From positions 96,001 to 160,000 of the IMG/VR virus record IMGVR_UViG_3300047382_000771: a DNA stretch of 64,000 nucleotides. The stretch is one strand, 5' to 3'. Shown in pieces: positions 9,169-28,343 of this stretch; the stretch's first letter is position 1; every line of letters starts with the position of its first letter. The DNA comes from a virus. Taxonomy: Duplodnaviria; Caudoviricetes. Position numbers and translations under genes: made by a program. Below the pieces are notes generated by a model, which worked only from the letters and a program-made list of their open reading frames with translations, did no database searches and had not been told where the DNA came from.

Positions 9169-12100
9169 TAGGGTACCGCCTCAATTCTAACATAATAACT
9201 CTTACCTTCCTCTATGGATGTATCCCTAAAGTCATAAGAAATTTGTTTAGTTAAATCGTCTCTATTTATGTTTTTATTCCCAAGCTCAAGTGTTTTTATT
9301 AGCTGCTTTGAGTGGAAAACTTGAACACGATATAATCTTGCAGCAGAAACTTCGTTCCAGAATATCCTTAAGCCATATTTTAACCCAAGCTCTTCATCTT
9401 CATCTAGCATTTCGATGTATATATTTTCAGGAGGCGGAGTAAAGTTTGTATTCATAACAATTGGGGATCTTGGGACAGGCAGAGTTGCGTTATCTTCAAT
9501 TGTTCCAAATTTACCAGAGTTATATTCCATAGCTTCTATTTTATATATAGCATCCCCCTCTTCAATTATATTTAAAACTTTATACTGCTTTGTTGTTGCT
9601 AAATTTAATTCATCCTCTATAACAAAAGTAGTACCTTCTATATCATGCAACTTAAGTAAAGCATCGTCAGTTTTCCTCTCAAGTATATAGCTTTTTAATA
9701 TATTTTTGTCATGGGTTACCCAATCCCCATGGTCTTCAAAATCGCTAGATCCACTAACACAAATAAAATTATAACCAGAAGGCAAATCTGGATCCTCTAC
9801 TATAATCTCCATAGATTCACTCACTAAGGGTTTAGGATAACTAGGAGAATCCGTTTCCACCCCTTCTTGAGCTTCTAGACTAGCTATCCTATCTCTCCCA
9901 ATATCAGATTCAGTATTACCAAATTCATCTTCTAGGGGATCTCTAGCTATCGTTAATCCAACTTTTGGGTAACCTACCCCCCAATTATAAAAATCTATTT
10001 CATCATCAGTACAGCCTTGTGGGTTAACCCATACAAATTTTTCAGGAGGAGGAGTCTCTCTGTAATACCCGCCTATCCATGCAAGCTCATTATCATCTTT
10101 TGGCAACACATCCCCAACGAATTGTTGGTCTACTTCGTTAGCAATCGAAGCTACATCGCCACCTCGTAATCTAGCATCCTGCATTGCTGTCACAAATGTA
10201 AACTTGCCAGATATATGCTCGTAAGGATTATTGATAACTTGCACCCTAGTATCGTTATTAGTTATAGAGCCTATAGTGTATTCACCTATTTGCCCAATCC
10301 TAATACTATCTATTTCTTCATCCGTTATCGCATCCCCATAAAGTGATTTTTGATTTAAGGTCTCCAGAGTGTTGTAGCCCGATATGTTGTATAGTTTTAT
10401 TTTCTTGTGAGTCCTATTATCAAATGAGTCAACTATAGTCCTAACTGGAAAATCTATATCTAGGTATGCTACCTTACCATCACCACTTACATCTATATTT
10501 AAAACTTTCCCAGCAAATCTACCTACAGTTTTTTTATTGTCTAATATATCTATCACATCTCCAGGCCTAAGATAAGATCCTGGATGAGCAGTATTAAATG
10601 TGACAATCTCTGTCTCTAAGTTCTTCCCTTGTACTAAAAACTCAGCCGTTCTTTGAGCTTGTGATTTAGATGTAACACCTAATGCGTTTATAGACTCTTC
10701 ATATAAACCGTTCTCTACGATCTTTTCTCTGTTTTCTGCGAACGCAATTTTTGGTCTATACCTATTGTATTGATCTAGGTATTTAACTTTTACAGAATTA
10801 GTTCTACTACTCCTGGGTGTATTTGAATACTGAAAGCCCTCGCTGGACACCATATTATTAGTAAACAACATGATACTATTAGTAGGCACATCCTGATAAA
10901 AGTTTATTTTCCCTCCACCCCAATAAGTGTATGCCCTAAATATGTCAGCTATTTCATTTATTAATTTAAAAGCATTACTAGGCTGGGATAAAACAGCATT
11001 CATTTTATACCTATGCTCTATTACTGGGTAATATATTTCGGCAGCACAAGTACCTTCCATCACATTACCTATACCTCTATCAAGGACAACATAATACCTA
11101 CCTATAGTTTCATCTCCAGTGACAGAGACAATTTTCCTTAATGCTCTTTTTTTATAACCGTTTTCCTCCCAAAATAGAGCTATATTCTTTTGTATATGTT
11201 TAAATTCTTGACCAAATTGTTCTTTAGTTAAAAACTGACCCTCCATTAAAATTCTAGCACTACCAACTGTTTTAAAATTTCTCCTTGGATATGTTGATGA
11301 ATACCCAGTTGGAACAAGTTCGTCACAAAATTTTGCTACTTTGTAAAATGTCCACTTGTCTATAAACTCTTCTTCCATACCGAACTTACCCAATCCATAA
11401 ACATTATTAGATATTAAATCGTATAGACACCATGCTGGATTGTCAGTCCACACAAGTTCATCTGAAAATTGTCCATTCCACGCTTGCCCATAAGTTTTCA
11501 AAACTGGATCGTAATTATTTGGTACTTTTACTTTTTTAAGTTTTAAGTTGTAATTTCTCCTTAACTGCTGTGGGACTTCTTTTGCTGAAACCCTAGTTCC
11601 TATTACTACTGAATTTGGGTAATTAGTTTTTATAGTGGATATTTCAGTTATGTTAGCTAAAGCAACATCATCCTTGTACCTCGCTGCTGACTCACCCTCC
11701 CTTACTACATTTCGCTCTCTAGTTATTTTGAAAGCTTTTATAATTCTAGGTCTACCCAACGGATTAGGAGGTAGATAAATTTTAATATCCTTCATGTACC
11801 CACCTGTGCAGGTTCCGAAGAAAGAAACATCTGTCTCGTATAAAGTTTCTCCTTCATTTCCATAGTGTATTCTAACCTGAACTCTGTTCGGCCAAGTTTC
11901 TCCAGAATTTTCAATTTTAGTTCCTATCTTAAATTCAGAATTTTTTTCAAGAATAATACCAAAAATTAAACCAACAACGCCTCCCCATATAACACTGGTC
12001 AGAAATGCACCCAAGTCAAATGGTTCATCACTTTCAGCCATTAAGTCAGCTGCATAACCTGCCCCAGTAATAGCACCTATAACAGCAAATAAAGTAGCAC

Positions 12101-14573
12101 CAGGAACATATGTAACCTCTACTTCGTCCCCTGGGTATATAAAAAATAATTGATTTATTTGAAATGTAACCAATGCTTCATCTACTAAGGGATTCGTTAT
12201 TATATGTTTTACTGGATATTCTTCTTCTGGTCTTACGTCTCCAATATCTCCTAATGAGTCTAATGAAATAAAAACTGGGTCATCCGATACAGCGGATGTG
12301 TCTTCGTTGTAAAAAACTACCCCAGGATTTTCTATAGTAATTTCTTTCCATAAGTTACTATTCGTTTCGGGATCTGGATCTATGGCTGTAAAAATGGTGG
12401 GAAATTCTTCGGCAACAGTTTCTAAAAACCCTCTTCCGTTTAATTCTATTTTCTCGAAATAAACAACCCCTTGCTGAGCTTGATCACTTAAAGATACTAT
12501 AGTTGAATTTTCATCACTTAAGTCTCCCTCTGGGATAGCTGTTATTGTTTTATAAACAGACGTATTATTAAAGTAAACAACATCATTCACTGCAAAAGGT
12601 TTAGCTGGCCTAAATTGCTTAAACCTTGTTGCTGCTTCTGGGCCAGCCCTAAAATAACCAGAACCTACTAGATCTAAATCCTGATTATTAGGTATACCAT
12701 CACCATCATCGTCATCCATAGGATATTGGCCCATATATTCAGGCTCTTCAAAAACCACGGTATTCGCATCGTAAGCCATATTGTATGTAAAAACTTGAAT
12801 ACCATCCCCAGGATTGTCTGGATCTTCTTTAAATATTCCTCTAGCCTCAAATAACCTTGTTCCCTTTTTAACTATTGGGAGCGGGTCAAATTGTCCAACA
12901 ACATAATTAGACGCAGGACTATACTCAGTATCGGTGGCTCTTAATGTTTTATACCTAACCTCTGTAGTTCCATTAAAAAATGTAACTATTGTGCCCTTGG
13001 GATAAAAAGGTGTAGATTTATTAAAATCTTTAAAATTAGTACCCTGGAACTTAGCCGCATTAACTTCATCTAATATTCTAGGCCCAAAAAGTTTTGCGTT
13101 TATTGGTTTTGTTTCCCCTATAAACTGGTAAGGCTTTTCTAACAAAGATTGATCGTTTGCTCCAATCTCTCCTTTTGTATTCCTAGCTACATCAATATCA
13201 AACTGTAATAGATTATAACTTTCTTGTACAGTTGTTTCGTCTATATATTTCTCTTCTTTTACTGGTAGGTCATTAAGTAAAACAGCCTTAAGGTAACTAT
13301 CCGAACCATCTCCAGGATTACTGTCTTTCGCATCTGTAAAAATTAAATCATTACCATCGTCATCAGAGAATCCTTGAATTGGTCCTTCGCATATTAAATC
13401 TACTATTGTAGCTATCGCTGAAGACTCGAATTTATACCAACCTAAACCATTCCTTTTACTTCCATTCTTGTATCTTCTTCCAACACAAATAACATTTCCT
13501 AGGTTAGAGGATTGAACATTAGTTGGGTCATCTACAAGTTGAGCATTCCTGAAATTTATCGGATAAAATATTCTTTCTGAAGAATCGTTAATTCTTTTGG
13601 GTTCGCTCTGCAGCATAGTGAAAGGAGCTAAATGTAAATCAGCCTCTTTAACTGTAGCTATTCCTTCTTGTGGAGTTGGTCCCCAATCCCCATTGTAACT
13701 ACTATAATTTTGAAGGAAATATTCTGGCACCCCTTTGTTATAAATAGTTTTATAATACAATGTGCCCGCACTTAAAAAACCCTTACCAAGTTTTTGCTTT
13801 TCAATAGCTTCCTCCCCTGTGTATGATACATCTGCTCCGTACATTCCATCATTAGATCCAAAACCTGTAGCAGGGTCCCTAGATTTAAGAGCCTTAAATA
13901 CTATACTTTCTATACCCATTTCTGATGGCCCGTCAGCGATAGAGGAAAAAGCACTAGATAATAGCGGGCCAGGATCTTCTCCTAATTGCTCAATTAATAA
14001 CTGTCTGTATTTATTATATAAAGGTATAAGGTGGTATGCTCCATTTTCTAATTTATATATTTTACCTAAATCAGCATCATATTCATAATTATTAATTGAA
14101 TTTGATACAACCTTAGAGCCCACTTTCATTTTACCGTAACCAAGTGGTACATTACTACCTTGTTCTGTTACATTCTCCACACCCCTATAAATATAAGATT
14201 TGGTTTGAGCTTGTAAAACTCTAGTATCTCTCTCTTTCTTCCCTAGCATTTTATTCTGAATCCATCCGCTAAGGAAACTTGTACCAAAAGACATAGCCAT
14301 TCCCATAACCATTCCAGCACCTTGAGCTACAGGAGATATAATAATATCTTCTTTTGTATTTTTATCTATTTCTTCTTGGCGGAAATACTCATTAGAGTCT
14401 TTCTTCTTAAAAGAGTACCTAACTCCATCCATCTCTTTAGATTGCAGGTATTGTATAAAACCATCAGTATTTGCTTCGATAGCCGATATAGCTTCTAGGG
14501 GAGACCCCACATCTAGTTCCCACTTTTTCCCAAAGCGTTTGCCTAGTTTTCCATATAAGTATACCTTTTTCAT
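9168..14573 (-). CDS. tail tip protein: lambda gpI-like N-terminus fused to gpJ-like host-specificity protein, with inserted lectin/CBM-like domains
   Basis: MKKVYLYGKLGKRFG...SPLEAISAI (gpI-like), VPLGYGKMKVGS, DLICEGPIQG, WTDNPAWCLYDL, GLGKFG...IDKWTFYKVAKFCDE, LRPGDVIDILD (gpJ-like), terminal FN3. Confidence 0.9.
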   Translation of the reverse strand: MKKVYLYGKLGKRFGKKWELDVGSPLEAISAIEANTDGFIQYLQSKEMDGVRYSFKKKDSNEYFRQEEIDKNTKEDIIISPVAQGAGMVMGMAMSFGTSFLSGWIQNKMLGKKERDTRVLQAQTKSYIYRGVENVTEQGSNVPLGYGKMKVGSKVVSNSINNYEYDADLGKIYKLENGAYHLIPLYNKYRQLLIEQLGEDPGPLLSSAFSSIADGPSEMGIESIVFKALKSRDPATGFGSNDGMYGADVSYTGEEAIEKQKLGKGFLSAGTLYYKTIYNKGVPEYFLQNYSSYNGDWGPTPQEGIATVKEADLHLAPFTMLQSEPKRINDSSERIFYPINFRNAQLVDDPTNVQSSNLGNVICVGRRYKNGSKRNGLGWYKFESSAIATIVDLICEGPIQGFSDDDGNDLIFTDAKDSNPGDGSDSYLKAVLLNDLPVKEEKYIDETTVQESYNLLQFDIDVARNTKGEIGANDQSLLEKPYQFIGETKPINAKLFGPRILDEVNAAKFQGTNFKDFNKSTPFYPKGTIVTFFNGTTEVRYKTLRATDTEYSPASNYVVGQFDPLPIVKKGTRLFEARGIFKEDPDNPGDGIQVFTYNMAYDANTVVFEEPEYMGQYPMDDDDGDGIPNNQDLDLVGSGYFRAGPEAATRFKQFRPAKPFAVNDVVYFNNTSVYKTITAIPEGDLSDENSTIVSLSDQAQQGVVYFEKIELNGRGFLETVAEEFPTIFTAIDPDPETNSNLWKEITIENPGVVFYNEDTSAVSDDPVFISLDSLGDIGDVRPEEEYPVKHIITNPLVDEALVTFQINQLFFIYPGDEVEVTYVPGATLFAVIGAITGAGYAADLMAESDEPFDLGAFLTSVIWGGVVGLIFGIILEKNSEFKIGTKIENSGETWPNRVQVRIHYGNEGETLYETDVSFFGTCTGGYMKDIKIYLPPNPLGRPRIIKAFKITRERNVVREGESAARYKDDVALANITEISTIKTNYPNSVVIGTRVSAKEVPQQLRRNYNLKLKKVKVPNNYDPVLKTYGQAWNGQFSDELVWTDNPAWCLYDLISNNVYGLGKFGMEEEFIDKWTFYKVAKFCDELVPTGYSSTYPRRNFKTVGSARILMEGQFLTKEQFGQEFKHIQKNIALFWEENGYKKRALRKIVSVTGDETIGRYYVVLDRGIGNVMEGTCAAEIYYPVIEHRYKMNAVLSQPSNAFKLINEIADIFRAYTYWGGGKINFYQDVPTNSIMLFTNNMVSSEGFQYSNTPRSSRTNSVKVKYLDQYNRYRPKIAFAENREKIVENGLYEESINALGVTSKSQAQRTAEFLVQGKNLETEIVTFNTAHPGSYLRPGDVIDILDNKKTVGRFAGKVLNIDVSGDGKVAYLDIDFPVRTIVDSFDNRTHKKIKLYNISGYNTLETLNQKSLYGDAITDEEIDSIRIGQIGEYTIGSITNNDTRVQVINNPYEHISGKFTFVTAMQDARLRGGDVASIANEVDQQFVGDVLPKDDNELAWIGGYYRETPPPEKFVWVNPQGCTDDEIDFYNWGVGYPKVGLTIARDPLEDEFGNTESDIGRDRIASLEAQEGVETDSPSYPKPLVSESMEIIVEDPDLPSGYNFICVSGSSDFEDHGDWVTHDKNILKSYILERKTDDALLKLHDIEGTTFVIEDELNLATTKQYKVLNIIEEGDAIYKIEAMEYNSGKFGTIEDNATLPVPRSPIVMNTNFTPPPENIYIEMLDEDEELGLKYGLRIFWNEVSAARLYRVQVFHSKQLIKTLELGNKNINRDDLTKQISYDFRDTSIEEGKSYYVRIEAVP

Positions 14574-14593
14574 CCTTTTTCCTAAAATAGGTA

Positions 14594-14599
14594 TTACAC
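14594..14599 (-). promoter_or_regulatory. GTGTAA motif upstream of the I-J gene (putative late promoter element)
   Basis: ttacac on +, 20 nt before ATG 14573. Confidence 0.45.
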
Positions 14600-15328
14600 T
14601 TAAGAATTAGGTCTGTATACTCTAACTATTCTTTTTCTCCATTTATCGTCTAAAAAGTCTTCGCCAGATAAGTGGTGAGCTTTTTGATGATAAAATTCAT
14701 CTACTTCAGAGCAAACACCTACGTGCAATACATCTTCATTAGGGATATGAAATATCAACATGTCATGTTTTCTTATGTCTTCCTTATCTTTAACTTTAGT
14801 AAATCCCTCCTCAAATATTTTAAGCATATATTTGTTAGCTTTTTTACCATCTATAGGGGGAAAATAATTAAAGGATTTATAATCTAATTTAAACCAAGGG
14901 CATCTTTCGGAATAATAATCTCTAGGAATATTAACGCACTCACAAAAGCCCCTAACATAAGGTCTACCAGTTAGACTTGGCGGCTCAAATGAATCAGGTA
15001 TATATAAAAATATTTTTTTAGTTACCAAGCTATATATTAAGAAAGGTATACCCAGTTCTTCTGAATTATTTATATCAACCTGAGATGGATTCTCTGAAGA
15101 TGTAGGATGGGAGTGATATATACCTAAAAGTTTTTTTTGCCCTAAAATTTTTAAAGGAGAAATCTCAAACATTCTCTGTTTATCAAAGCTTTGATTTTTT
15201 TCCCTAGTAACTTTAACTATCAAATTAGAATCTAAAGATATGGTACCGCAAACTTCTTCACTTGGATTTGATTCTGCGTGCTCTATAATTTCTTTATAGT
15301 AATCTTTATTTTGTTTATTCAAAGTCAT
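14600..15328 (-). CDS. tail assembly protein, lambda gpK-like (JAB/MPN + NlpC/P60)
   Basis: EEVCG...GIYHSHPTSSENPSQVD JAMM motif; CECVNIPRDYY and LHVGV NlpC/P60 motifs; position between L and I-J. Confidence 0.88.
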   Translation of the reverse strand: MTLNKQNKDYYKEIIEHAESNPSEEVCGTISLDSNLIVKVTREKNQSFDKQRMFEISPLKILGQKKLLGIYHSHPTSSENPSQVDINNSEELGIPFLIYSLVTKKIFLYIPDSFEPPSLTGRPYVRGFCECVNIPRDYYSERCPWFKLDYKSFNYFPPIDGKKANKYMLKIFEEGFTKVKDKEDIRKHDMLIFHIPNEDVLHVGVCSEVDEFYHQKAHHLSGEDFLDDKWRKRIVRVYRPNS

Positions 15329-16340
15329 AAGGTTCTACTCCTGGAAAACCTCCGAAGGGCAAACCTTCATTGAATTCCGTATATAAATCGTCATCTCCTT
15401 GGTTTGATTGAAATCTTTTACACCCCCCAGCTTCTTTTGCGTCATCTGAATACCTTAACCTGCAGCCACAGATACTTTTGTCACACTGATCTTGAATCCA
15501 GTTTTTTCTATCAAACAAGGGGCTTGATATAACTTCCTTACCAATGCACACATATATAGATATAGGCTGGTTTTCTGATGTGCCTGTTTTTGGTGTTATG
15601 GTTACAACATCTCCCTTATTGTAAGTCCCATATGCAGTCCATTCTGGGTAAGATCCATTTTCATCAGGCTCAGCAAAACCATCAGGAAAATCATCTTTAT
15701 TCAAATGCACAAAAGCCCCCACATCTTCGCCTTCGTATCCAAGTTCCACGAATCTTTGGTTTTTTATGTCAGCTATAGGTTTACCCACATAACCACATCC
15801 GACTGTAGATCTATATTTCCACTCACAGTAATTAGAATATATTGTTCTGGATGGTATAGTTGAATTTTCAAGCTCCAACGGAGATACTAACTCAAACTCC
15901 ACTAAATCATCAGTTTCTCTTAATTTTTGGTTAACAAAATATATCTCTCTAGCAAAAGCCTCCTCTGGGTCTGGTTCAGCATAAGGATTAATATTGTTTG
16001 GGAAGTTCGAATGATCTAAATATTTTAATAAAGTTTTTATCCTAGTAACTCTGTAATTTGTAAAGTCATTAAATATTGGCAGCCTTACCGATATGTTACC
16101 TCTATAATTAGACAAAGTCATGGTCGGCCTAGGTAGTCTTCCATCGCCTTGAAATTCAAACCCCTGAACTTCTATAGGGTAATATAAATATTCCATACCG
16201 TCAAAAACAATTTTACCACGAAACTCATTCTCTCCAGCATGAAAAGTAAACACACCCCTTTCCTTTATATCCAGCTGATATAATACTATAGGCATAGTAG
16301 GGTCTGCCTGAAATAAATCTTTTACTTTTTCTTCTTTCAT
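15315..16340 (-). CDS. minor tail protein, lambda gpL-like
   Basis: YYPIEVQGFEFQGDGRLPRPTMTLSN, VEFELVSPLELE, CEWKYRS..GCGY, QCDKSICGCRLRY, LPFGGFPG with the four-Cys Fe-S pattern. Confidence 0.9.
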   Translation of the reverse strand: MKEEKVKDLFQADPTMPIVLYQLDIKERGVFTFHAGENEFRGKIVFDGMEYLYYPIEVQGFEFQGDGRLPRPTMTLSNYRGNISVRLPIFNDFTNYRVTRIKTLLKYLDHSNFPNNINPYAEPDPEEAFAREIYFVNQKLRETDDLVEFELVSPLELENSTIPSRTIYSNYCEWKYRSTVGCGYVGKPIADIKNQRFVELGYEGEDVGAFVHLNKDDFPDGFAEPDENGSYPEWTAYGTYNKGDVVTITPKTGTSENQPISIYVCIGKEVISSPLFDRKNWIQDQCDKSICGCRLRYSDDAKEAGGCKRFQSNQGDDDLYTEFNEGLPFGGFPGVEPYDFE

Positions 16341-16341
16341 T

Positions 16342-17847
16342 TTAGTATGAACTCGTACTTATGTTACCGCCTGTATTTGTCTGGTTATTAATTTCGCCTA
16401 TTTGAGTTCCCTCTGCAACATCTTCTTCGCTTGCTGAAACTATATTGTTATATAATATGATTTTAGGGTCATAGTTTCCAAGGAAAAATGTTTTATTTTC
16501 AATTAGCCCCTCAGGCATAAAATACATCTTGCCGTTAAACTCAAACTTCCTAAACGCTCCGCTTCCTGATTTTTCCGCGCTAGCTTTAGATAAATACAAC
16601 GGATAGTAACCTTGAACATTTTTAGGCGACTCTATATACGAGCTACCAATATCTACAGCTAGCCTTTTATCACTTTTTACATTTTCCGAAACGATACCCC
16701 TTAAAGGTAAATCATATACTCTACTAAATTCAATTGATTTATTAAGTGCGGTAACAAACGAATATTCACGACCAAGATATCTTTTATTGGCTCCTAATTT
16801 AGTTGCTCCCCCTAAACCTATATGCCATCTCATAGATTGGCCAAGCCTACCCTGCTGCTGTTGATATTCTGACATTATTTTTATGTCATCTGATGCTCCA
16901 TGCCTAGACAATTGATAGGATATAACTTTTTTTAGTTTAATAGGGTCATCCGTACTTAGAGATTGCCCTATGTTTTGTACAGAATCTTTCCACAGAAAAT
17001 CTCTAAGCATGCCATCCCAATGCCTGTTTACGAAATTCTGAATTTCCTTAACATAAACCTCGTCCCTTATTTCTTTAGTATCGAATGTAGAGTCGGCATT
17101 CGAGTCGTCATTTATTCGAAAAATAGAGTTCCATTCTTTAATTAAATTCCTTTCACTATATTCGCCTGTATAGATAGGGTATATTCTCCTCGTCTCTGGT
17201 ATACCTGATATATCTTGGGACAATTCTGTCGTTATATCAGGCTTGATTTGCAAAGAAAATATAGATCCTTTTTCCGATGAAGAATATATATCAAATACAC
17301 AAATGCCTTCTGCATTTTCTTGAACATCTATAAAAGGAATATTAGATTCTCCCGCTTCTAATTCTAACAACTCCATAATGGAAGCTCCACTCCAGCCGCC
17401 AGAAAACATATCACTCAAAACTATAGTGTTCCCTTCAACTATGCCAGACATACCTATATCCTGAGGATCAAAATCTCCAGTTCCAGTAATCAGATAACCT
17501 CCCGACCAATAAGACCCTCCAGGCAACCTTAATTCATTTTCGATTTGTTTAGAACTCGATAGTGAGCTAGACCTCTGTCCAGGTACCCAAGAAAACTGAT
17601 CAGGGTATCCTAGTAAATTGTTTTTGTCTAGATTTAAATCTCTTTCTTCGTTATTAAAAAAAGATATTCTTTTTACTGTGTGAATATAATCAGACTCAGT
17701 TAAATAAGTTATAAAACCAGATCCATTTATTGTTCTCAAAACTAGAGTTGAGACCGAGTCTGGATCCATCGCTATACCTAAACTGACACCATCATTGTAG
17801 GTATTGAAATCCCCGCTATTAAAATTAATTTTTTTCATTATGGCCAA
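16342..17847 (-). CDS. hypothetical virion protein
   Basis: 501-aa ORF in the tail operon, coupled to neighbours; no family recognised. Confidence 0.55.
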   Translation of the reverse strand: MAIMKKINFNSGDFNTYNDGVSLGIAMDPDSVSTLVLRTINGSGFITYLTESDYIHTVKRISFFNNEERDLNLDKNNLLGYPDQFSWVPGQRSSSLSSSKQIENELRLPGGSYWSGGYLITGTGDFDPQDIGMSGIVEGNTIVLSDMFSGGWSGASIMELLELEAGESNIPFIDVQENAEGICVFDIYSSSEKGSIFSLQIKPDITTELSQDISGIPETRRIYPIYTGEYSERNLIKEWNSIFRINDDSNADSTFDTKEIRDEVYVKEIQNFVNRHWDGMLRDFLWKDSVQNIGQSLSTDDPIKLKKVISYQLSRHGASDDIKIMSEYQQQQGRLGQSMRWHIGLGGATKLGANKRYLGREYSFVTALNKSIEFSRVYDLPLRGIVSENVKSDKRLAVDIGSSYIESPKNVQGYYPLYLSKASAEKSGSGAFRKFEFNGKMYFMPEGLIENKTFFLGNYDPKIILYNNIVSASEEDVAEGTQIGEINNQTNTGGNISTSSY

Positions 17848-18680
17848 TTAGGTTCATTGATCGTATCAAGTTTATACATTTGATTAGCTAAAGGTCCAAA
17901 GTAAGCTGTCCTAGGGATTGCTGTTAAACTATTAACAAGATTAGTTCCATTATAATTCCAATTAAGCACTATACCTAAATGAGTAGGAGGTTGTTGTGTA
18001 AATCTAAGCTGAAACGGGTGAAGGCCTTTCTTTAAAAAAACACTTCCTGTAGCACTCCAAGCAAATCCATGATTACTGTAATCATCATCAATAATTAATG
18101 TTCTATTAGTTGGAGCTAGACCACCTTGAAATATATAAAATATCGCCCTATCATCCGATATTGTAGCAAATTTATAGGTGCCATCTACTGGTGCATAAAT
18201 TTGACCATCCCAAACAGCTGCGAAATACTGGGTTAACGAGGTCATTCCAGGAAACCCTTTAGTGTAAGACTGGTTAGGCACATTTATTTGGTGACTACAC
18301 ATATCTGTTTTAAATTTACCGTTATAGTTAGTATCTGTCTTTAGTCCATTAGCTCCAATACCTCCAATTTGGTAAAGCCTTAATGCCATAGGCAATCCAG
18401 GCGACCCACAAGGACCCCCGAACGCAGAGAATACAGCTGATGGGTCAGGAGCTGGAGCGGGCTGAGGCACTTCTTCTACATCTACAACATTGATATTGAA
18501 ATTTTTCTCCAAGCTCAAACCCCTCTCGTCCGTGCAAGACACTCTAATTGAAAAAGAGGGATTATTAAAAGCTTCGTAATCTAAGCTTTGAACAAGTTTA
18601 ACCTTTCCATCTTCGGTGACAGAAACATATTGGTTACCTTCACTCCCTGCCCCAGATACTAATTTAAATTTTCTAGCCAT
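17838..18680 (-). CDS. partial cadherin domain + Pro-rich linker + PA14 domain protein
   Basis: SLDYE...SIRVSCTDERGLSLEKNFNINVVDVEE (cadherin C-terminal strands); FAAVWDGQIYAPVDGTYKFATISDD...LKKGLHPFQLRF (PA14). Confidence 0.75.
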   Translation of the reverse strand: MARKFKLVSGAGSEGNQYVSVTEDGKVKLVQSLDYEAFNNPSFSIRVSCTDERGLSLEKNFNINVVDVEEVPQPAPAPDPSAVFSAFGGPCGSPGLPMALRLYQIGGIGANGLKTDTNYNGKFKTDMCSHQINVPNQSYTKGFPGMTSLTQYFAAVWDGQIYAPVDGTYKFATISDDRAIFYIFQGGLAPTNRTLIIDDDYSNHGFAWSATGSVFLKKGLHPFQLRFTQQPPTHLGIVLNWNYNGTNLVNSLTAIPRTAYFGPLANQMYKLDTINEPNWP

Positions 18681-18681
18681 T

Positions 18682-20004
18682 TTATTCTACCACTCCTAGT
18701 TGACCTATTAATGTTCCAGCTGGAAGGTTTTCTTTGATATCTGAATTAGATAATGTTATATCCGTAAAAGGCACATACCTTGCGGCATCCAACTCCACAA
18801 ACCCAGGCGAAAAACAAAATCCTTCATTCACAAAATCTCCTTTCTCGGATAAAAATATATTATTATCCCTCAAAGTATTATCTCTTTTTTCTGTATTAAA
18901 AAATATAGACATATTACTGACAAGTGTCGAAGGACTATCGGTTGTAACATCTATATGCATGCCTGTGTATTCAATACCATCGAAATATATTCTCTCGTTT
19001 TGCCTAAAATATGTTCCAGTTACTTTTGCATTATTAAAGTCTATAATTTCAATAGCGTAACTATCCAACATTTCATCTAAGCTCGAAGCGTCAAATATAG
19101 CTTTATTAAATGTCGCCATAGCTGCCTTAAATGACACTTGGTCTTTACAATACTTTTGGGTTATCTGTTGAGACAAACCCTGTAATGCAAAAAACTTATC
19201 ATAATCACTATCAGTAATATCAGAAAATATACCAGATGTTAATAAACAATTCTCGAATTCTAAATCCCCCAAAGGATTTTGATCTTCGCAAGAATAATAA
19301 CCTTCATAGTTCTGGTAATTAAGTAGTGGCTCTCTATCAAGCTTGTCGCAAACTAATTCCCCACTAACAATGAAATTTGTATCACAATTATTTGTTTCAC
19401 AATTAACAATAGGAAACCCTGGGAAAATACTAAACTTTGCATGCCATGCGTCTCCAGTCCTATTCTCCCAAGACCCTTCTCTCCCATCCTCTATTTCATT
19501 TCTTGACGGATGAAAAAATGTTGGTATCCTTAATCTTGTATAAGGAGCTATAGTGGCTGGCAAATAGTCCTCATCCACATTTCCTGTATTATATTCCTCT
19601 AACCCCTTATATGTTTGCTCGAAAATAGTAAACCTAACTGGGTCAGAATTAGTAAAGCCAGTTATAGTAATTGGCATATCGCAAACATTTACTATCTCCA
19701 AAGACTTACCATCAGCCGTTAAACCGACTGGTTCATTACAGGGGTATGTTATTTCTGAAGTTTCACAGTCGTCTAAATAAATAACCTGAGGCTGACCAGG
19801 AGCAACACCAGAAACACCATCGGTTAAAATAAGCTTATTATTATATGTTGCTTGCTTTAGGATCCAATCTTCATATGTAGGTGAAGATGGGTCAGTATCT
19901 TGTACATAATACAACCCTGTTTCCTGAAGTAGTCCACCGCAATTCGCATACTCAGTAATACCAGTGTAAGCGAAGTCGACGTTTTTGTCATTCAAGAAAC
20001 TCAT
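18682..20004 (-). CDS. virion protein with Ig-like domain, ending in the first strands of a cadherin domain
   Basis: IVNVCDMPITITGF Ig-like strand; C-terminus FTDITLSNSDIKENLPAGTLIGQLGVVE. Confidence 0.55.
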   Translation of the reverse strand: MSFLNDKNVDFAYTGITEYANCGGLLQETGLYYVQDTDPSSPTYEDWILKQATYNNKLILTDGVSGVAPGQPQVIYLDDCETSEITYPCNEPVGLTADGKSLEIVNVCDMPITITGFTNSDPVRFTIFEQTYKGLEEYNTGNVDEDYLPATIAPYTRLRIPTFFHPSRNEIEDGREGSWENRTGDAWHAKFSIFPGFPIVNCETNNCDTNFIVSGELVCDKLDREPLLNYQNYEGYYSCEDQNPLGDLEFENCLLTSGIFSDITDSDYDKFFALQGLSQQITQKYCKDQVSFKAAMATFNKAIFDASSLDEMLDSYAIEIIDFNNAKVTGTYFRQNERIYFDGIEYTGMHIDVTTDSPSTLVSNMSIFFNTEKRDNTLRDNNIFLSEKGDFVNEGFCFSPGFVELDAARYVPFTDITLSNSDIKENLPAGTLIGQLGVVE

Positions 20005-22796
20005 TGCTTCTTCATTGTTATATTTTTAAAATTAGAAGACACCCACAGGGTTGAGCTTGCTGGGTCACTAGCATCAGGCTCAACAGTATAGTCGGCTAGG
20101 TGAGCCCAAGTCTGCTGTGGTATGAGCCATCTTCCATGGGCTCCACTAAACGCCCCCACGATATCATTCATCTTGCCAGGGACATCCGTAAGTGTGGGGA
20201 AGTCAGCATTAGCTATATAAAATTGAAAACACGAATATGTGGTATTCGGGCTAGTGATTTGGTTTTTTCCTAAAAGGTCTGCCGCTTCAGGACTTAAGTC
20301 ATACTTAATCAACTTAGGATTTTCCCCAACTTTATCATTTATTTTTAAATGAGGTGGCGGAGGCTCCCCTGACTGATTTAAGGATAATAATTCTGGCCCC
20401 GATACTATGTACAGCTCTCCAGTTTGTGCATAATAAGTGAACTGGGCTTGATGATAATATGTGGTACTAGGTGCGGATGCTAATGTCGATGGGGTTGATG
20501 CATACGCATTTATATCTGCGAGGGATTCAGCACTTAAAGTTGCTATCACCGCAGTTCCATCTTCGTTCGTTACGTCGGGTGAAGCTGCAACCGAAGACCA
20601 AAAGCCACTAAGATTAAACTCTCCTGATGGAATGTTATGCTCAAGAATAACTTCCCCAACCATCACATCTTCAGTTGAACCTATAGTGTTTCCATCTTCA
20701 TCAACACCTGAGTTTGGGGTAGGATATCGAGGTAGTGTTAATTTAATTTCGCTCCCTGCTGGCAAATAGCCAGCTTCAGGCTCAATAATCCATGTTCCAT
20801 ATATAGGTAACTCCAGTGGCTCTTCCTCTTCTGGCTCATCTTCAAATTCTCCTGGCGTATAAGGCAAATACATTCCTATCCCATCTACAGACCTACCTGT
20901 GCTAGTAAATGGCATTTCACATGTTAAGTCGAAATGCATGTTAGCATAAGCCTGCATTTGATTCATTGTTTTATCTTTTCCATTAAAAACCATCTGAATT
21001 TTTTCGACGATAGCTTGATACCCTGGCTTGGTTGGCATGCTTTGATTCATTCTTACTCCAAAAAACAAATCTATTTCTTGCCCTCTCATTAATAAAGGTA
21101 AATGAGAATAATCACCCATATATCCATTTTCTTTAGATACGTTACCTATATTATAATCTATTATTTCTAACCCAGTTGTTTGTGATCTAAAAACCCTAAT
21201 TGGCATACCCCTTGATGCTACCCCTTGGTTTTTCACGCCCTTACTTTTTAGCCAATTATTAGCCCAACCTCCACCTACATTGTAAAGTACCCCACGTCTA
21301 TACACTTCATACTGTGTATTAAATGAATGCCAAAGTATATTGTAATTACTATTAATATCTTCCAGGTAATCTCTATTTAAAGGATCATTATAAAATTGGC
21401 CACCATTACCAGCTTCTAGATTTAAATTCAACCCACCTATTCTATCTGAAGGATCATCAAATGGAGTGGCTTCAAAAACCATTTGGTGATCGTCGGTAGA
21501 CTTTAAAAAAGTACCATCTTCTATACCCGCAGCCATATAACCATAACTAGTATTACCATTTCCTGGTTTCAAGAACTGCATGTTATGTAAATCATTACCC
21601 TTAAGTATCCCTTGTTTTAAAGTTTCAGTCCTCCATCTTGTAGCCCCCACATCTGGATCATTCCTACTTTCTTCTGGGGTTGGGTCTTCATCTAATTCGA
21701 AATTTACTATCGTGTTTAGTAGGTTAACTTCATGAGGTCCACAATTATGAAGTGTTATCGAATATAAATTCTCAAAACCAGTGTCATAACATAACCTATC
21801 AATCATGTTAACAACGCCAAGAATTCTCCTAAATTCCTTATCTGGGTTTTTTCCATCTGTCAGCTCTATATATCCTACGGGTAATTCTGGCCTTGCTTCG
21901 TAATCAAAAGCATATTTTTTAGCATCAGGAGAAATGCCTTTGCTTTTTGGGTCACCTACTCCGATAAAAAAAGAAGAAGTTTTTACTGGGTATTTATACC
22001 AGTCTTGTTTGTCTGCCCCAGAATATCTTGTTGGCAATTTTAAATGGGTACCTTCTATAGGTTCCTGATTTGATATAACAAAATCTCTTCTCAAATTTAT
22101 ATCTAAAGGTCTTCGGTATGAGTATATCCTATCATCTCTAGTTAACCCAAGTATGCCGTCAGCATTTCTACCAAAATCACTATAACCATCACCTATGTAA
22201 AATAAAAATCTTTTCTTTACCTGCCTGGCTCTTGGAGAGAAGAATAATTCATAGAAAGCTTTTCTTGTTGCATTAATATAATCCTTCCCGTCGCCTGGTG
22301 TTATTCCAGATTCAAGGTTCTTATACAAAGCATGCCTATCCATGTTTTGAGGGTAATCTAAAATAGAAGATATAACTTCGCAATCTTCCTTGCTGGATAT
22401 TTTTATAACACCAATATTTACATGTTGACCTTCTATCCTAACACTGAACCTTTTAAGCTCTCGAGGAGACATCGCATTCAAACCATCTGCATCAAGAAGA
22501 CCTCCTCCTGATGCAGCTCCCCATGGCGGTATATTTTCGTTGTAATCTATAGTCGGACAATCTATTTTATCTCCATAACCAAATGATTCTGTGCCAGGCA
22601 TAACGCTACAGTCGTGCAGTGTTGCAACTTTTTTTATAACATCTGTTATAATCTCAAGTCTAGTGAAAATCTTTACACCACCGCCTTCTACAGGAATGCG
22701 TATTTGGCTCGAAGACGAAGGTGATGAATCGACCAAAAAAATCAAATCTATCTGATTATCATGTACTTTGTACAACCTATCGTATTGCTTTTCCAT
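20001..22796 (-). CDS. von Willebrand factor A domain tail protein
   Basis: IDLIFLVDSSPS (DxSxS MIDAS), VNIGVIKIS, KKRFLFYIGDG. Confidence 0.72.
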   Translation of the reverse strand: MEKQYDRLYKVHDNQIDLIFLVDSSPSSSSQIRIPVEGGGVKIFTRLEIITDVIKKVATLHDCSVMPGTESFGYGDKIDCPTIDYNENIPPWGAASGGGLLDADGLNAMSPRELKRFSVRIEGQHVNIGVIKISSKEDCEVISSILDYPQNMDRHALYKNLESGITPGDGKDYINATRKAFYELFFSPRARQVKKRFLFYIGDGYSDFGRNADGILGLTRDDRIYSYRRPLDINLRRDFVISNQEPIEGTHLKLPTRYSGADKQDWYKYPVKTSSFFIGVGDPKSKGISPDAKKYAFDYEARPELPVGYIELTDGKNPDKEFRRILGVVNMIDRLCYDTGFENLYSITLHNCGPHEVNLLNTIVNFELDEDPTPEESRNDPDVGATRWRTETLKQGILKGNDLHNMQFLKPGNGNTSYGYMAAGIEDGTFLKSTDDHQMVFEATPFDDPSDRIGGLNLNLEAGNGGQFYNDPLNRDYLEDINSNYNILWHSFNTQYEVYRRGVLYNVGGGWANNWLKSKGVKNQGVASRGMPIRVFRSQTTGLEIIDYNIGNVSKENGYMGDYSHLPLLMRGQEIDLFFGVRMNQSMPTKPGYQAIVEKIQMVFNGKDKTMNQMQAYANMHFDLTCEMPFTSTGRSVDGIGMYLPYTPGEFEDEPEEEEPLELPIYGTWIIEPEAGYLPAGSEIKLTLPRYPTPNSGVDEDGNTIGSTEDVMVGEVILEHNIPSGEFNLSGFWSSVAASPDVTNEDGTAVIATLSAESLADINAYASTPSTLASAPSTTYYHQAQFTYYAQTGELYIVSGPELLSLNQSGEPPPPHLKINDKVGENPKLIKYDLSPEAADLLGKNQITSPNTTYSCFQFYIANADFPTLTDVPGKMNDIVGAFSGAHGRWLIPQQTWAHLADYTVEPDASDPASSTLWVSSNFKNITMKKQ

Positions 22797-25700
22797 TATT
22801 CAGTATATTCTATTAATATAGATCCTATGTGCTGCCAAGAATACTGAGCCCATTTTATCCTAGTGTCATATATCCCAAAAGATTTTAGATAAGTTCCAGC
22901 TTTAGGTAAAAACCCTAATTTAGATCCATCATTAAGAGATGGCCTAAGTTTCCATAGATCTGAAATAGTCATCTCTAACTGATCGTAATAACCTAAATCC
23001 CTCATATTTCTTTTTATAACATTATTCCAAAGTTTATTTCTGTAATCATCCCTCTCTACCCAAAAGTTATTATATATTATAAATGGCCCGATTTCATCCA
23101 TTATTAAATCACCCTCAAAGTTTTCCTTACTATACATCCTAACTCTTACACCTTTAGGGGCACCTATTGCATCAAGCAGCCCTTTACTAACGGATACTGG
23201 GTCTTCTGGTTCCCTTCTGTCTATCAGAACATTTTTAAGAACAAATTCTGCGGCTGGGAATCTACCTACTGGTAAAGAGTTTGTGAATTTTGACGAGTCT
23301 GACTTAAAGGGTTGTGCGAGGCAGTGATAATTATTTAATAAACCTCCGTATTGTTCCCTGGTAATAACTTGCCCTGCAGCATAACTATGCTTAAAGTCCC
23401 ACTGCTGGTCATGTATACCCACCCCAGAGAAAGTAACTTTTAATGGCTCAGACAATGTCACAGGTTCCCAGGGAATAAGTTTACTTTTATATAAATAATC
23501 TGGGGTTGTGAACGCAGCTTCCACCACGGAGGACAAAACACACATAGTGTTCAATGTAATGGGTTCGTAAAGCTCTGCCCCGAAACAACCAGATTGAATC
23601 CTTTGCCCTCCAAAACCAAACACTTCCTTAAGGTTTTCATTTATACCACTAACAGACTCAATGAAAGTGCAAGATATGGTGTTATTATTTTTGTATAAAA
23701 CAGTATGCTCCCAGCTAGGACAATAAAAAGTCGATGTATTCGGTGATGCTGGAGTCGTGTATGGGTTTAAATCTTTCGAGAAAGGCCTAGGCAGCTGAAA
23801 CCTGAACTTTTTGTAGCCTAAATGAGACTCCAGAAACTGAAGTATTTCCTTAGCTTCTCTGTCAGACCTTTGAGAAAACTCAATATTCACACTTACTAGA
23901 TTTTGATTTATACCTACTTTTGTGTATCTTTTATAAACCTGAGTAAACGCAGTCTCTTTATGTGTTGGAGTATTTTCAATACTAAAAGATATAGAAGGCA
24001 AAAAATCTAAAGACCTAACTTGCAAATAAGGATAAGACGCAAATTCGTTAGCATCATCTATATATATATTTCTCCTCCCTTTTACAGCTGGAACAATAAA
24101 ACTAAAGTTATCCTTGACTTGAAAGTTTTCTAATGGAGTTATCTTTAATTTATTAGACTTTGGGGTAATTTTAGAATCCAAAGTAATCCTCCTGTAATCC
24201 CTTAAGAATAATTCCCTAGCCCTAAAAGTCCCATCTTCGGATGTGGAGGCGGGTATTTCATCTATGTTTTCTGGAAAGAAAGTCTTACTAGTTAAACAGT
24301 CTTCAGGGCACCTTCCAAGTTTTATTATATTCCAGGGTATTTCATCAACAGTTAGATCTTCGTAGTCTACCACTAATTCTTCAGCAGGAAAAGAATCCGC
24401 AAAAATTCTATTTCTATCTGAGTCTGTTATCATTCCTTGTTCGGTTTTTTTGTTTGCTCCAGGATCCTCTACTATAGGCCACTCTATTAATTCAAAGGAT
24501 ACATTTTCAGATTCTAGATCAAATTCCCCCTCAAACAGATATTCTGTAGCACTTATTCTTTTTGTAATTTTTACTACTCCAACATTAAATATAGAATTCT
24601 CATTTGGTTCTGGGATGTCAATATTTAAACATTGACCTATATCTAGAACATAATCTTCCTTAAACTCAATCTTACCTGCTTCGAAATCTTTGCCTGGATC
24701 TTCTGGATATCTAGAAAGGGTTTTGATCATTTTCCTTATCTGAACATTCTCGGTTGTCTCCCTATCCCTGCCTTTATATTCTCCACCAGGCTCTTCCTCT
24801 ATTTCTGCGGATATTTCGAACATCCTCAAACTCAACTGTTTGCCTTTCTCAAATTGTATTGGTTCATCTATCGCAACGGGAACTAATGCATCAATTCTTT
24901 TATTAAATCCAAAATGACTGTCAGAACTATACAGTGTGCTAGATGTGTTACATATAAATGTAGCACTTACATTATTATCGTTTCTGTAATTTTTCTCTTG
25001 ACCAAAACTTAAGCAGGTGAAATCTAAATCACTTTTATATGGGTAACCAAAATGAAATTTAAATTTTTGCACATCTGAAGATAGTAGTCTCTCTCCTTTA
25101 TAGTCTAAGGAAAAGGCAGAATCATAAGGAAAATGTTTTTCCTGTAAAAAATGCATTATAGCCTTTGCTTCTCTATCTGTTCTGTTTTCGAACTTTAGCG
25201 AGCACTGCATCGGCATAGAATTTATACTTTTATTACCAACGTATTCGTATCCATCACCAAGCTTAAGAGCTTCGTTTATAGTGCCAAAAGACGCACTCGA
25301 TCCGTAGCTTGGTCTCCAGAAAAAATCTTGAGACCATAATTCTTCAACATTTAACTCTGGAAAAGAATTGTTTGGGTTTAGTTGGAAATTTGAAACATGA
25401 TCTTTCTTGCAATAAAAAAACGGACTTAGATTGGATACGCTTGGGTTCCTAAAATAAAAACCACCAGTAACCAACCCGCCAATAATTGCATACATCCTTG
25501 CATACCTTGCGTTCGCTGGTATAGTTCTTTGGTGAATGTCATGCTGCATATGGAAGTATTGAGTCAAATCAAACTCACTAGACGCCATAAATCTAAAATG
25601 GTCTCTGTAATTTATAGGTTGAATATATTCTGAATTTTGATCGTAATATTTTATTCCAATACCAACCCCAATCGATGTCTCAGGGTCTATGTCGTATTGA

Positions 25701-26092
25701 CCATCATGACCATGTGTATATGAGATGTGCTCTTTTTCCGAAATTAAAGTATTAAATATATCAGTAGTAGCAGTATCTTCAGAATTTTTTCTCACCATAC
25801 ATTTAACTGTATAGCTGTACTTAGGATTAATTGCGAAGTCTACCCCCATTTGTTTCTGAAGGCCTTCTTCTTTATTATCTATATTGATACTAGCCTCACC
25901 CTTATAGTCTAATCCAAGTATGTAATCGTTTTCTGCATCTATTATATTAACAATTGGTTGGGTCTCATCCGCTAAACCTATACCATCTAATGCTGGGTTT
26001 TCAGGAAACGCAAGATTACCTATGCTTACTATCTCATGAGCAAGGTATTCTCTTCCATTGGGATCCCATGGATTATTTACTGATATATCCAT
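22796..26092 (-). CDS. distal tail protein with two lambda gpM-like domains
   Basis: FFWRPSYG...LKLGDGYE...INS...LKFENRTDREAKAIMHFLQEKH and a second copy FLPS...GINQNL..VNIEFSQRSDREAKEILQFLESHLGYKKFRF...FYCPSW. Confidence 0.72.
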   Translation of the reverse strand: MDISVNNPWDPNGREYLAHEIVSIGNLAFPENPALDGIGLADETQPIVNIIDAENDYILGLDYKGEASINIDNKEEGLQKQMGVDFAINPKYSYTVKCMVRKNSEDTATTDIFNTLISEKEHISYTHGHDGQYDIDPETSIGVGIGIKYYDQNSEYIQPINYRDHFRFMASSEFDLTQYFHMQHDIHQRTIPANARYARMYAIIGGLVTGGFYFRNPSVSNLSPFFYCKKDHVSNFQLNPNNSFPELNVEELWSQDFFWRPSYGSSASFGTINEALKLGDGYEYVGNKSINSMPMQCSLKFENRTDREAKAIMHFLQEKHFPYDSAFSLDYKGERLLSSDVQKFKFHFGYPYKSDLDFTCLSFGQEKNYRNDNNVSATFICNTSSTLYSSDSHFGFNKRIDALVPVAIDEPIQFEKGKQLSLRMFEISAEIEEEPGGEYKGRDRETTENVQIRKMIKTLSRYPEDPGKDFEAGKIEFKEDYVLDIGQCLNIDIPEPNENSIFNVGVVKITKRISATEYLFEGEFDLESENVSFELIEWPIVEDPGANKKTEQGMITDSDRNRIFADSFPAEELVVDYEDLTVDEIPWNIIKLGRCPEDCLTSKTFFPENIDEIPASTSEDGTFRARELFLRDYRRITLDSKITPKSNKLKITPLENFQVKDNFSFIVPAVKGRRNIYIDDANEFASYPYLQVRSLDFLPSISFSIENTPTHKETAFTQVYKRYTKVGINQNLVSVNIEFSQRSDREAKEILQFLESHLGYKKFRFQLPRPFSKDLNPYTTPASPNTSTFYCPSWEHTVLYKNNNTISCTFIESVSGINENLKEVFGFGGQRIQSGCFGAELYEPITLNTMCVLSSVVEAAFTTPDYLYKSKLIPWEPVTLSEPLKVTFSGVGIHDQQWDFKHSYAAGQVITREQYGGLLNNYHCLAQPFKSDSSKFTNSLPVGRFPAAEFVLKNVLIDRREPEDPVSVSKGLLDAIGAPKGVRVRMYSKENFEGDLIMDEIGPFIIYNNFWVERDDYRNKLWNNVIKRNMRDLGYYDQLEMTISDLWKLRPSLNDGSKLGFLPKAGTYLKSFGIYDTRIKWAQYSWQHIGSILIEYTE

Positions 26093-27294: not shown

Positions 27295-28343
27295 CTCTTA
27301 TTATAATAAGAATTATAGGTTAAATTTACAGTTAATCTTCCTTGAGCCGACGCACTAACTTGTTCAGCTACCATTCTGGCTTCCCTAACTATATAATCCT
27401 GAACTTTATTACCCAAGCAATCGTCAACCTTAATTGATATATCTTCCACTTTAGGCTTAATTAAATATTCCTTCATCCTGTGATATTCGTACTCATCTAC
27501 CTCAAGGGTAAAGTTAGTAGTTGTAACTATAGGCCAAACCACATCTACTTGTACGGGAGCACTTTTACCCACAACATAAATTGGGGTCAGATTAACATTA
27601 ACTGTATGTTGAAATGAAACCACCCTATCAGTTTTTGAACCAGCACACTCAATTCTTATGGAGCCTGGATCGGGCACTCTAATTTCTGGAAACGGATTAT
27701 CCCCAGAAGCATTATATGGTTGCTCTGGACCAGTTCCCTCAACAGCTATCCCAAAATCATTTTCTTGATCTATATAATCATATGGATCTTCAGAGTCTTC
27801 TGTTGCAAAGTAATCTGGGGCTCCACCTATATCGCCAAACACGGTTACGCTCGTCGATGTTTGTGGTATTTGATTCACGGCGCACGAAACACTATGAGAT
27901 GTCACATACCCATGATAAAAGCCAAAATATTCCTTACCGTGATGAATACTTCCAGTAAAAGGATTATCTCCAGTATAATCTAACATGAAGTCATCTCCAA
28001 CTAAAACTGAATTTATATTAAATTGTCCCTGCATTGGGGCATTAACCACCGCCAGGCTTTTAGGCAAGTCGCCTTGAGATGACATACAACTTTCATTAGT
28101 GGTTATCTTGAAACCATCTTCAGATAAAATAAAATCCTGCTTCTTGAAATACCCTCCCTGAGAAGAAGTTTCCCCTTCCATTTGGCCAACCAATTCATTG
28201 TAGTTGTGATTAACATGCCCCCAACCAATAACATTAATCGGTTTTTCGGATATCGAATAAGATCCGTCTACGCTTTGTATACCTGATAACTGAGTTCCGT
28301 CAACAAAAAACTTTTGTTCATGACCTAGGATAGTTTGCTTCAT
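27291..28343 (-). CDS. tail tube-fold-like protein (distant paralogue)
   Basis: LSGIQSVDGSYSISEKPINVIG, GYVTSHSVSCAVNQIP and VVSFQHTVNVNLTPIYVVG parallel segments of the tube paralogues at 47310-53437. Confidence 0.5.
   Translation of the reverse strand: MKQTILGHEQKFFVDGTQLSGIQSVDGSYSISEKPINVIGWGHVNHNYNELVGQMEGETSSQGGYFKKQDFILSEDGFKITTNESCMSSQGDLPKSLAVVNAPMQGQFNINSVLVGDDFMLDYTGDNPFTGSIHHGKEYFGFYHGYVTSHSVSCAVNQIPQTSTSVTVFGDIGGAPDYFATEDSEDPYDYIDQENDFGIAVEGTGPEQPYNASGDNPFPEIRVPDPGSIRIECAGSKTDRVVSFQHTVNVNLTPIYVVGKSAPVQVDVVWPIVTTTNFTLEVDEYEYHRMKEYLIKPKVEDISIKVDDCLGNKVQDYIVREARMVAEQVSASAQGRLTVNLTYNSYYNKR

Follow-up and report, generated by a model that had tools for sequence, protein, structure and literature searches.

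The tail-tip module of an uncultured marine phage (IMG/VR virus record IMGVR_UViG_3300047382_000771, 200,094 bp) contains two adjacent genes, here called A and B, that are separated by TAA-A-ATG and between them carry one cadherin repeat, the first part at the end of A and the rest at the start of B. The question raised by this locus is whether such a division reflects a damaged gene, a recoding event, a pair of unrelated remnants, or one domain that is rebuilt from two separately made proteins. We addressed it in a window of 64,000 nucleotides (positions 96,001 to 160,000 of the record; all coordinates below are those of the window). Homology of the two pieces, an invariant cut site, their co-occurrence in relatives and a single-chain structural model make it likely that the head of B is completed by a hairpin at the C-terminus of A, which thereby docks an exchangeable adhesin on a lambda-like tail tip. 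The coordinates and sequence quotations of a first-pass annotation, which was made from the DNA letters without database searches, proved exact, and the parts of the two genes are the following.

18682..20004, minus strand: gene A, 440 amino acids, a conserved tail-tip accessory protein with a half-cadherin tail (open reading frame (ORF) and translation)
18805..20004, minus strand: A core, residues 1-400 (profile matches of distant members end at about position 396; C-termini read directly)
18766..18804, minus strand: A linker, residues 401-413, GFVELDAARYVPF (alignment and conservation by region)
18685..18765, minus strand: A tail, residues 414-440, cadherin strands A, A' and B, TDITLS...ENLPAGTLIGQLGVVE (repeat-profile match)
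18678..18684, minus strand: junction TAAAATG, comprising the stop of A, one spacer base and the start of B (sequence)
17838..18680, minus strand: gene B, 280 amino acids, with a half-cadherin head, a Pro-rich linker and a PA14 domain (ORF, translation and Pfam)
18465..18680, minus strand: B head, residues 1-72, strands C to G, KFKLVSGAG...LDYE...SIRVSCTDERGLSLEKNFNINVVDVEE (repeat profile and Pfam)
17946..18353, minus strand: PA14 domain of B, residues 110-245 (Pfam PF07691)

The C-terminus of A reads ...TDITLSNSDIKENLPAGTLIGQLGVVE and the N-terminus of B reads MARKFKLVSGAGSEGNQYVSV. The first-pass annotation had taken these ends to be the two parts of a single cadherin repeat, and Pfam, pairwise and profile matches agree on this point. 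Taken alone, B covers only positions 41-92 of the Pfam Cadherin model (14.5 bits), and a read-through with X at the break covers positions 4-92 of 93 with its residues 422-506. For at least six of the repeats in P0016, a cadherin-repeat protein, the alignment with the joined stretch is uninterrupted (38% identity, pairwise E-value 6e-13), and the A tail alone, i.e. the last 27 residues, matches the starts of the P0016 repeats (14 of 23 residues identical, 61%). A total of 1.84 billion proteins were searched exhaustively with the A-family profile; the search gave 70 representatives of the A family, and long repeat proteins were matched via the tail alone, five to eight times per protein. Two of these proteins, P0074 and P0076, are matched seven to eight times each (E 1.5e-15 and 1.5e-8) and pass the Pfam Cadherin threshold themselves (E 7e-27 and 3e-63), and a profile of the B head matches PF00028 proteins at E-values from 5e-109 to 1e-10. 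Both halves are thus homologous to contiguous cadherin repeats, and the 200-kb genome holds no other Pfam Cadherin match or cadherin piece.

The position of the cut was read from a repeat profile of 100 positions, built from 27 contiguous repeats of nine cadherin-repeat proteins. The A tail corresponds to profile positions 2-26 (24.3 bits), extending to position 31 in some relatives, and the B head to positions 35/37-99 (35.1 bits), so that only the DxD loop (profile positions ~27-36) is absent between them, which is where the break had originally been placed. Of the calcium motifs, the joined repeat contains LDYE, lacks the DxD loop, which has been lost at the break, and has DVEE instead of NVNE. 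The A tail keeps the buried-residue pattern of strands A-B.

Conservation in relatives, which the first-pass annotation had named as a check, was found in six other contigs, in which A is from 97% down to 42% identical. A contig of 97% identity from another assembly has TAA-C-ATG instead of TAA-A-ATG and differs at neighbouring bases, and the C-terminal residue of A is also the last one in protein clusters of 93, 81, 73 and 63% identity, which come from ENA, JGI and Logan assemblies. Among the contigs in which A is 42-43% identical, L006 and L011 have the TAA-A-ATG junction, whereas L005 has a 5-nucleotide spacer that places B in the other frame. Since the arrangement is kept in independent assemblies with differing junctions, the split is a real feature of long standing, and A and B are separate proteins.

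A further form of the junction is that of L008 and L009, where the A half-domain is followed by a Pro-rich linker and ~190-200 further residues, and, after a 9-nucleotide spacer, B begins with the other half. With ~190 residues appended behind the A half, the two halves can meet in these phages only in trans. The appended sequence (L008:4350-4960 and L009:1255-1865) is a Cys- and Gly-rich domain of ~190 residues without a Pfam match.

The site of division is the same wherever the two pieces occur: strands A-B belong to A and strands C-G to B in 7 of 7 contigs, and in all 17 B-type clusters (four carrying PA14 and 13 a glycine-rich domain) the match to the repeat profile opens at position 34-37, 6-13 residues after the Met. 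Cadherin matches of the A family all lie within positions 1-31 and are either C-terminal or, in forms of 639 and 647 amino acids, just ahead of the extra domain; positions 35-99 of the repeat profile were found in no A-family protein. No fused form occurs among the 70 A-family representatives, the longer members of which lack a cadherin domain, and no A-B fusion appeared in a search of 5.8 billion proteins that spanned 396-1262 amino acids and would have shown a fusion of 720 amino acids. Two further distant A lineages, P0021 and P0059, have cadherin tails, and scans of viral contigs for these two found nothing. The database proteins P0021 and P0036 begin with MGLGD (MGLGDVYKRQ in P0021), which we take to be translated sequencing adapter, the two being contig-end artefacts in which this is not a true N-terminus.

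Most members of the A family are shorter and without the tail, ending soon after the GDFxxxxFC motif that closes the A core, and the linker of residues 401-413 is present in tail-bearing A proteins only. The tail and the B gene are both present in seven contigs and both absent in 28. In the latter group of viral contigs, which includes L014 and L015, tail-less A is accompanied by no B gene and by no ORF at the locus that matches the cadherin profile; A is directly followed there by the homologue of the 501-amino-acid protein encoded after B in our phage, where this is present, and by gpL in 7 of the 28 loci. What lies behind the homologous head of B differs between clades, being PA14 in this phage (34.7 bits against a cut-off of 24, E 1.8e-8, profile positions 2-137 of 147) and Gly_rich_2 in L005 and L011. 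The PA14 domain of B is a probable carbohydrate-binding cargo.

A structural model was obtained for a single-chain construct of 120 residues (A 402-440, X, B 1-80), using an alignment of nine contiguous repeats and the half-sequences. It has a cadherin fold, a Greek-key sandwich of seven strands, with a predicted local distance difference test (pLDDT) score of 79.6 and a predicted template modelling (TM) score of 0.64. The A part forms strands A, A' and B at 15-17, 21-23 and 31-37, and the B part forms strands C-E, then a short helix at LDYE, and strands F and G. Among the PDB matches listed by Foldseek, all the top ones are extracellular cadherin (EC) domains of cadherins and protocadherins, with E-values of ~3e-6 to 3e-5 and TM scores of 0.55-0.64 over ~105 aligned columns. 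The two pieces are therefore compatible, as modelled, with one cadherin fold.

A cadherin sandwich has strand B in the interior of the sheet A-B-E-D and strand A' at the edge of the sheet A'-G-F-C. Deprived of a central strand in one sheet and an edge strand in the other, the B head would be unable to close on its own. We propose that A and B are separately translated tail-tip proteins of a lambda-like siphophage that share one cadherin-like β-sandwich, with A ending in a 27-residue hairpin of strands A, A' and B, and B opening with strands C to G. As the tail is assembled, the A hairpin would insert into the head of B, so that the domain is rebuilt between the two chains and anchors B to the tail tip, and the C-terminal region of B, PA14 here and a glycine-rich domain in the sister clade, would then be displayed as an adhesin for the host surface. 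The split domain would serve as a standard plug and socket, with the cargo behind the socket being exchangeable. Physical pairing, the role in assembly and glycan binding are the parts of this scheme that we infer. A broader version, which we offer more tentatively, is that the locus possibly represents a portable natural plug-and-socket, in which a C-terminal tag of 27 residues on a conserved tail-tip protein would capture whatever protein has the 70-residue socket at its N-terminus, allowing host-binding modules (PA14, glycine-rich and others) to be swapped while the tail core is left untouched. In that case the two parts might also find use as a natural pair for protein ligation.

Several observations weigh against the proposed docking. 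The joined sequence scores 17.5 bits with Pfam Cadherin, which is below the curated cut-off of 28.8. In the clade of 42% identity, the A tail has an insertion and does not score against the repeat profile, and its cadherin nature is recognised there by the motifs TDITL and V-x-EE...RVGYL only. The predicted fold comes from a single joined chain, and the inclusion of contiguous cadherin repeats in the alignment leans the result towards a cadherin fold; a full-length joined model (18 sequences) was unusable, with pLDDT 38.8, and is uninformative on the A core. Finally, the co-occurrence of tail and B gene may represent one acquisition in one clade rather than many independent events.

In the strongest alternative, both halves are kept but do not pair: the A tail would be a leftover of recombination or fission, or would bind something else, and the B head would be completed by another partner or be a truncated, partly ordered linker. 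The pairing of A with B is, after all, inferred, the A tail of the distant clade is poorly cadherin-like, and a single event in which the tail and B were gained together would explain their co-occurrence without a function. A useless tail of 27 residues should decay or be lost, yet in the closer relatives tail and core are conserved to a similar degree (identities of 81 and 81%, and of 77 and 73%), and in more distant ones the tail is somewhat less conserved (50 against 64%). Moreover, this tail retains the buried-residue pattern of strands A-B and has been retained even where another domain is appended behind it, as in L008 and L009, and a remnant of five strands from which the central one, B, is missing would probably not be stable, while the 200-kb genome offers no second cadherin piece to complete it. 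We therefore regard unpaired halves as unlikely, and docking of B through the hairpin of A as the better account of the locus.

Much less probable is a programmed +1 frameshift or slippage at GAA-TAA-A, by which some or all of the products would be a 720-amino-acid protein with an intact domain. The two frames do differ by +1, the same TAA-N-ATG spacing is found in four contigs, and immunoglobulin (Ig)-like domains are added to phage structural proteins by frameshifting. Gene A ends with GTA GAA TAA, the TAA occupying 18684-18682, the spacer A 18681 and the ATG of B 18680-18678, and a TAG stands in the B frame nine bases ahead of this ATG. With the B frame closed by this TAG, B has no possible start further upstream, and a change of frame from A to B would be confined to a window of two codons. 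Neither a slippery nor a re-pairing sequence occurs in this window, and the spacer base is either A or C, depending on the contig. The frame offset is +1 in some pairs and +2 in others, as the spacer of L005 illustrates, L008 and L009 have ~200 residues and nine nucleotides between the halves, and every B has its own ATG in the usual start context. Recoding, which the first-pass annotation had kept as its alternative, is effectively excluded by these differing junctions and by the lack of a conserved slippery site or frame relation.

The start context of B deserves a comment, since the first-pass annotation had drawn attention to a GGAG 12 nucleotides ahead of the ATG. The motif is present, but it is weak evidence for a ribosome-binding site, an argument that we rejected as most genes of this phage lack one. 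Among ~25 gene starts on the minus strand (6808-57951), most have no Shine-Dalgarno motif and instead have A-rich leaders, often with TAAA-ATG, and the ATG of B stands in this same context. Judged from the sequence of these leaders, they suggest a host with weak Shine-Dalgarno use. Stops and starts of the genes of this phage commonly overlap or abut.

The initial statement that a single indel would not remove the TAA was mistaken: loss of any one base of G-A-A-T (the GAA codon and the T of TAA) fuses the two frames, and the split could accordingly arise or vanish through one indel. Faulty assembly or sequencing, or a recent inactivating mutation confined to this genome, can nonetheless be set aside, for although one inserted base could yield exactly this junction, the same stop and start recur in the independent contig of 97% identity and in the clusters at 93, 81, 73 and 63% identity, the arrangement extends to relatives at 42% identity, and a split conserved with differing junctions rules out such an error or a recent pseudogene just as it excludes a conserved frameshift mechanism.

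The proposed docking has partial counterparts in several known systems. The first-pass annotation had likened the locus to donor-strand exchange in pili, and in principle the comparison is apt. In chaperone-usher pili (Fim, Pap, Caf1), as in the scheme proposed for A and B, an open Ig-like sandwich is completed by one or more strands of another polypeptide, giving a very stable non-covalent joint. The particulars of the comparison fail, as the missing strands, the donating terminus and the chaperone and usher all differ. Pilins are without the C-terminal strand G, which is supplied by the N-terminal extension of the next subunit with the help of a chaperone and an usher, whereas in B the N-terminal strands A, A' and B are absent and would be supplied by the C-terminus of A, no polymer would be formed, and assembly would be cytoplasmic. 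No chaperone or usher genes were found around A-B, where the neighbours are lambda-type tail genes only.

A closer parallel in a phage tail is the nozzle of the Pseudomonas podophage A1002, for which cryo-electron microscopy has revealed that gp39 supplies the missing strands of the β-propeller and platform domains of gp42 (PMC13730344). Like A and B, these are neighbouring tail genes with incomplete domains, the strands of which are completed by the partner (PMC13730344). The A1002 pair forms an essential nozzle of a podophage, in contrast to the single accessory cadherin-like sandwich of A and B, which is cut after strand B, belongs to the tail tip of a siphophage and carries exchangeable cargo. 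The two systems have no sequence relation, and the A1002 structure has been solved, whereas A/B is known from sequence and a single-chain model. A search of the literature found no phage tail for which the splitting of a cadherin or Ig-like domain is described; within the papers covered, the A1002 nozzle was the one solved case of trans-completion in a phage.

With respect to the fold itself, the bacterial cadherin-like repeat proteins (PF00028, PF17803 and PF17892; P0016, P0074 and P0076) are homologous to both halves, which together span one repeat. Bacterial cadherin repeats are contiguous and tandem and have DxD and DxNDN calcium motifs, whereas A/B is a single repeat that is cut at the DxD loop, has lost this loop and falls below the Pfam cut-off. 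Classical cadherins form strand-swap dimers by A* exchange between EC1 domains, which resembles the A/B scheme in involving the same fold and an exchanged N-terminal strand; there, however, two complete domains reversibly swap a short strand, whereas here the domain itself is divided over two different proteins. Split inteins (cyanobacterial DnaE) and the engineered SpyTag/SpyCatcher pair (from the Ig-like CnaB2) are functional analogues, each consisting of one fold in two fragments that find each other and refold to join proteins, as is proposed for A and B. Inteins splice and then leave, and SpyTag forms an isopeptide bond and is man-made, whereas the A/B joint is presumed to be permanent, non-covalent and natural.

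The genomic setting assigns A and B to a tail-tip module of lambda type, which runs, in order, through an ORF of 4218 amino acids at the tape-measure position, a gpM-like protein, a 931-amino-acid protein, A and B, and continues with a 501-amino-acid protein, gpL, gpK (JAB) and a gpI+gpJ fusion. Matches to Phage_min_tail, Phage_tail_L, Prok-JAB, and phrog_32 plus phrog_31 follow the lambda-like order of tape measure, gpM, gpL, gpK, gpI and gpJ, with four extra genes between gpM and gpL, A and B among them. The neighbouring genes are as follows.

28343-40999, minus strand: ORF of 4218 amino acids at the tape-measure position (place in the tail module)
22796..26092, minus strand: gpM-like minor tail protein, 1098 amino acids (Pfam Phage_min_tail, 62.4 bits; phrog_14)
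20001..22796, minus strand: 931-amino-acid protein directly upstream of A (no family match; syntenic in relatives)
16342..17847, minus strand: 501-amino-acid protein directly downstream of B (no family match)
15315-16340, minus strand: gpL-like protein (Pfam Phage_tail_L, 152.7 bits)
14600-15328, minus strand: gpK-like JAB protein (Pfam Prok-JAB; phrog_18, phrog_31 and phrog_32 are listed jointly for the gpL, gpK and gpI+gpJ genes, 9168..16340)
9168-14573, minus strand: gpI+gpJ-like protein, 1801 amino acids (phrog_32, phrog_31 and Phage-tail_3)

Gene A has no Pfam or PHROG match, B and the joined sequence likewise have no PHROG match, an ESM Atlas search with A gave no usable match, and GenBank phage records match the region neither in DNA nor in protein. 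Opposite the end of gene A lies a TTG-started ORF of 108 amino acids (18734-19060, plus strand), which is also present in L001 and probably reflects no more than the conservation of the coding strand.

Other members of the module have features of their own. The gpM-like protein of 1098 amino acids (22796-26092) contains two separate Phage_min_tail stretches and is much larger than lambda gpM. The N-terminus of the 931-amino-acid protein (20001-22796) has a motif, DLIFLVDSSPSSS, resembling that of von Willebrand factor A domains with a metal ion-dependent adhesion site (vWA/MIDAS), yet it has no Pfam match. In L014 (1-3873) the homologue of this protein and the gpM-like protein are fused in a single ORF of at least 1290 amino acids, which points to other gene fusions or fissions in this tail module. 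The 1801-amino-acid ORF (9168-14573) combines a gpI-like part (phrog_32, residues 1-162) with gpJ-like central fibre parts (phrog_31, Phage-tail_3), whereas gpI and gpJ are two genes in lambda.

Phage tail proteins are usually thought to be joined via whole-domain interfaces, and a domain divided between genes would, if the proposed pairing is true, represent a different and very economical docking principle. It would also provide a rule for annotation, namely that two adjacent half-domains are no sign of a broken gene, and a small natural tag-and-catcher pair for use in protein engineering. For one group of abundant, uncultured siphophages of the sea, the same principle would explain how accessory adhesins are mounted on the tail tip and how their binding modules are exchanged.

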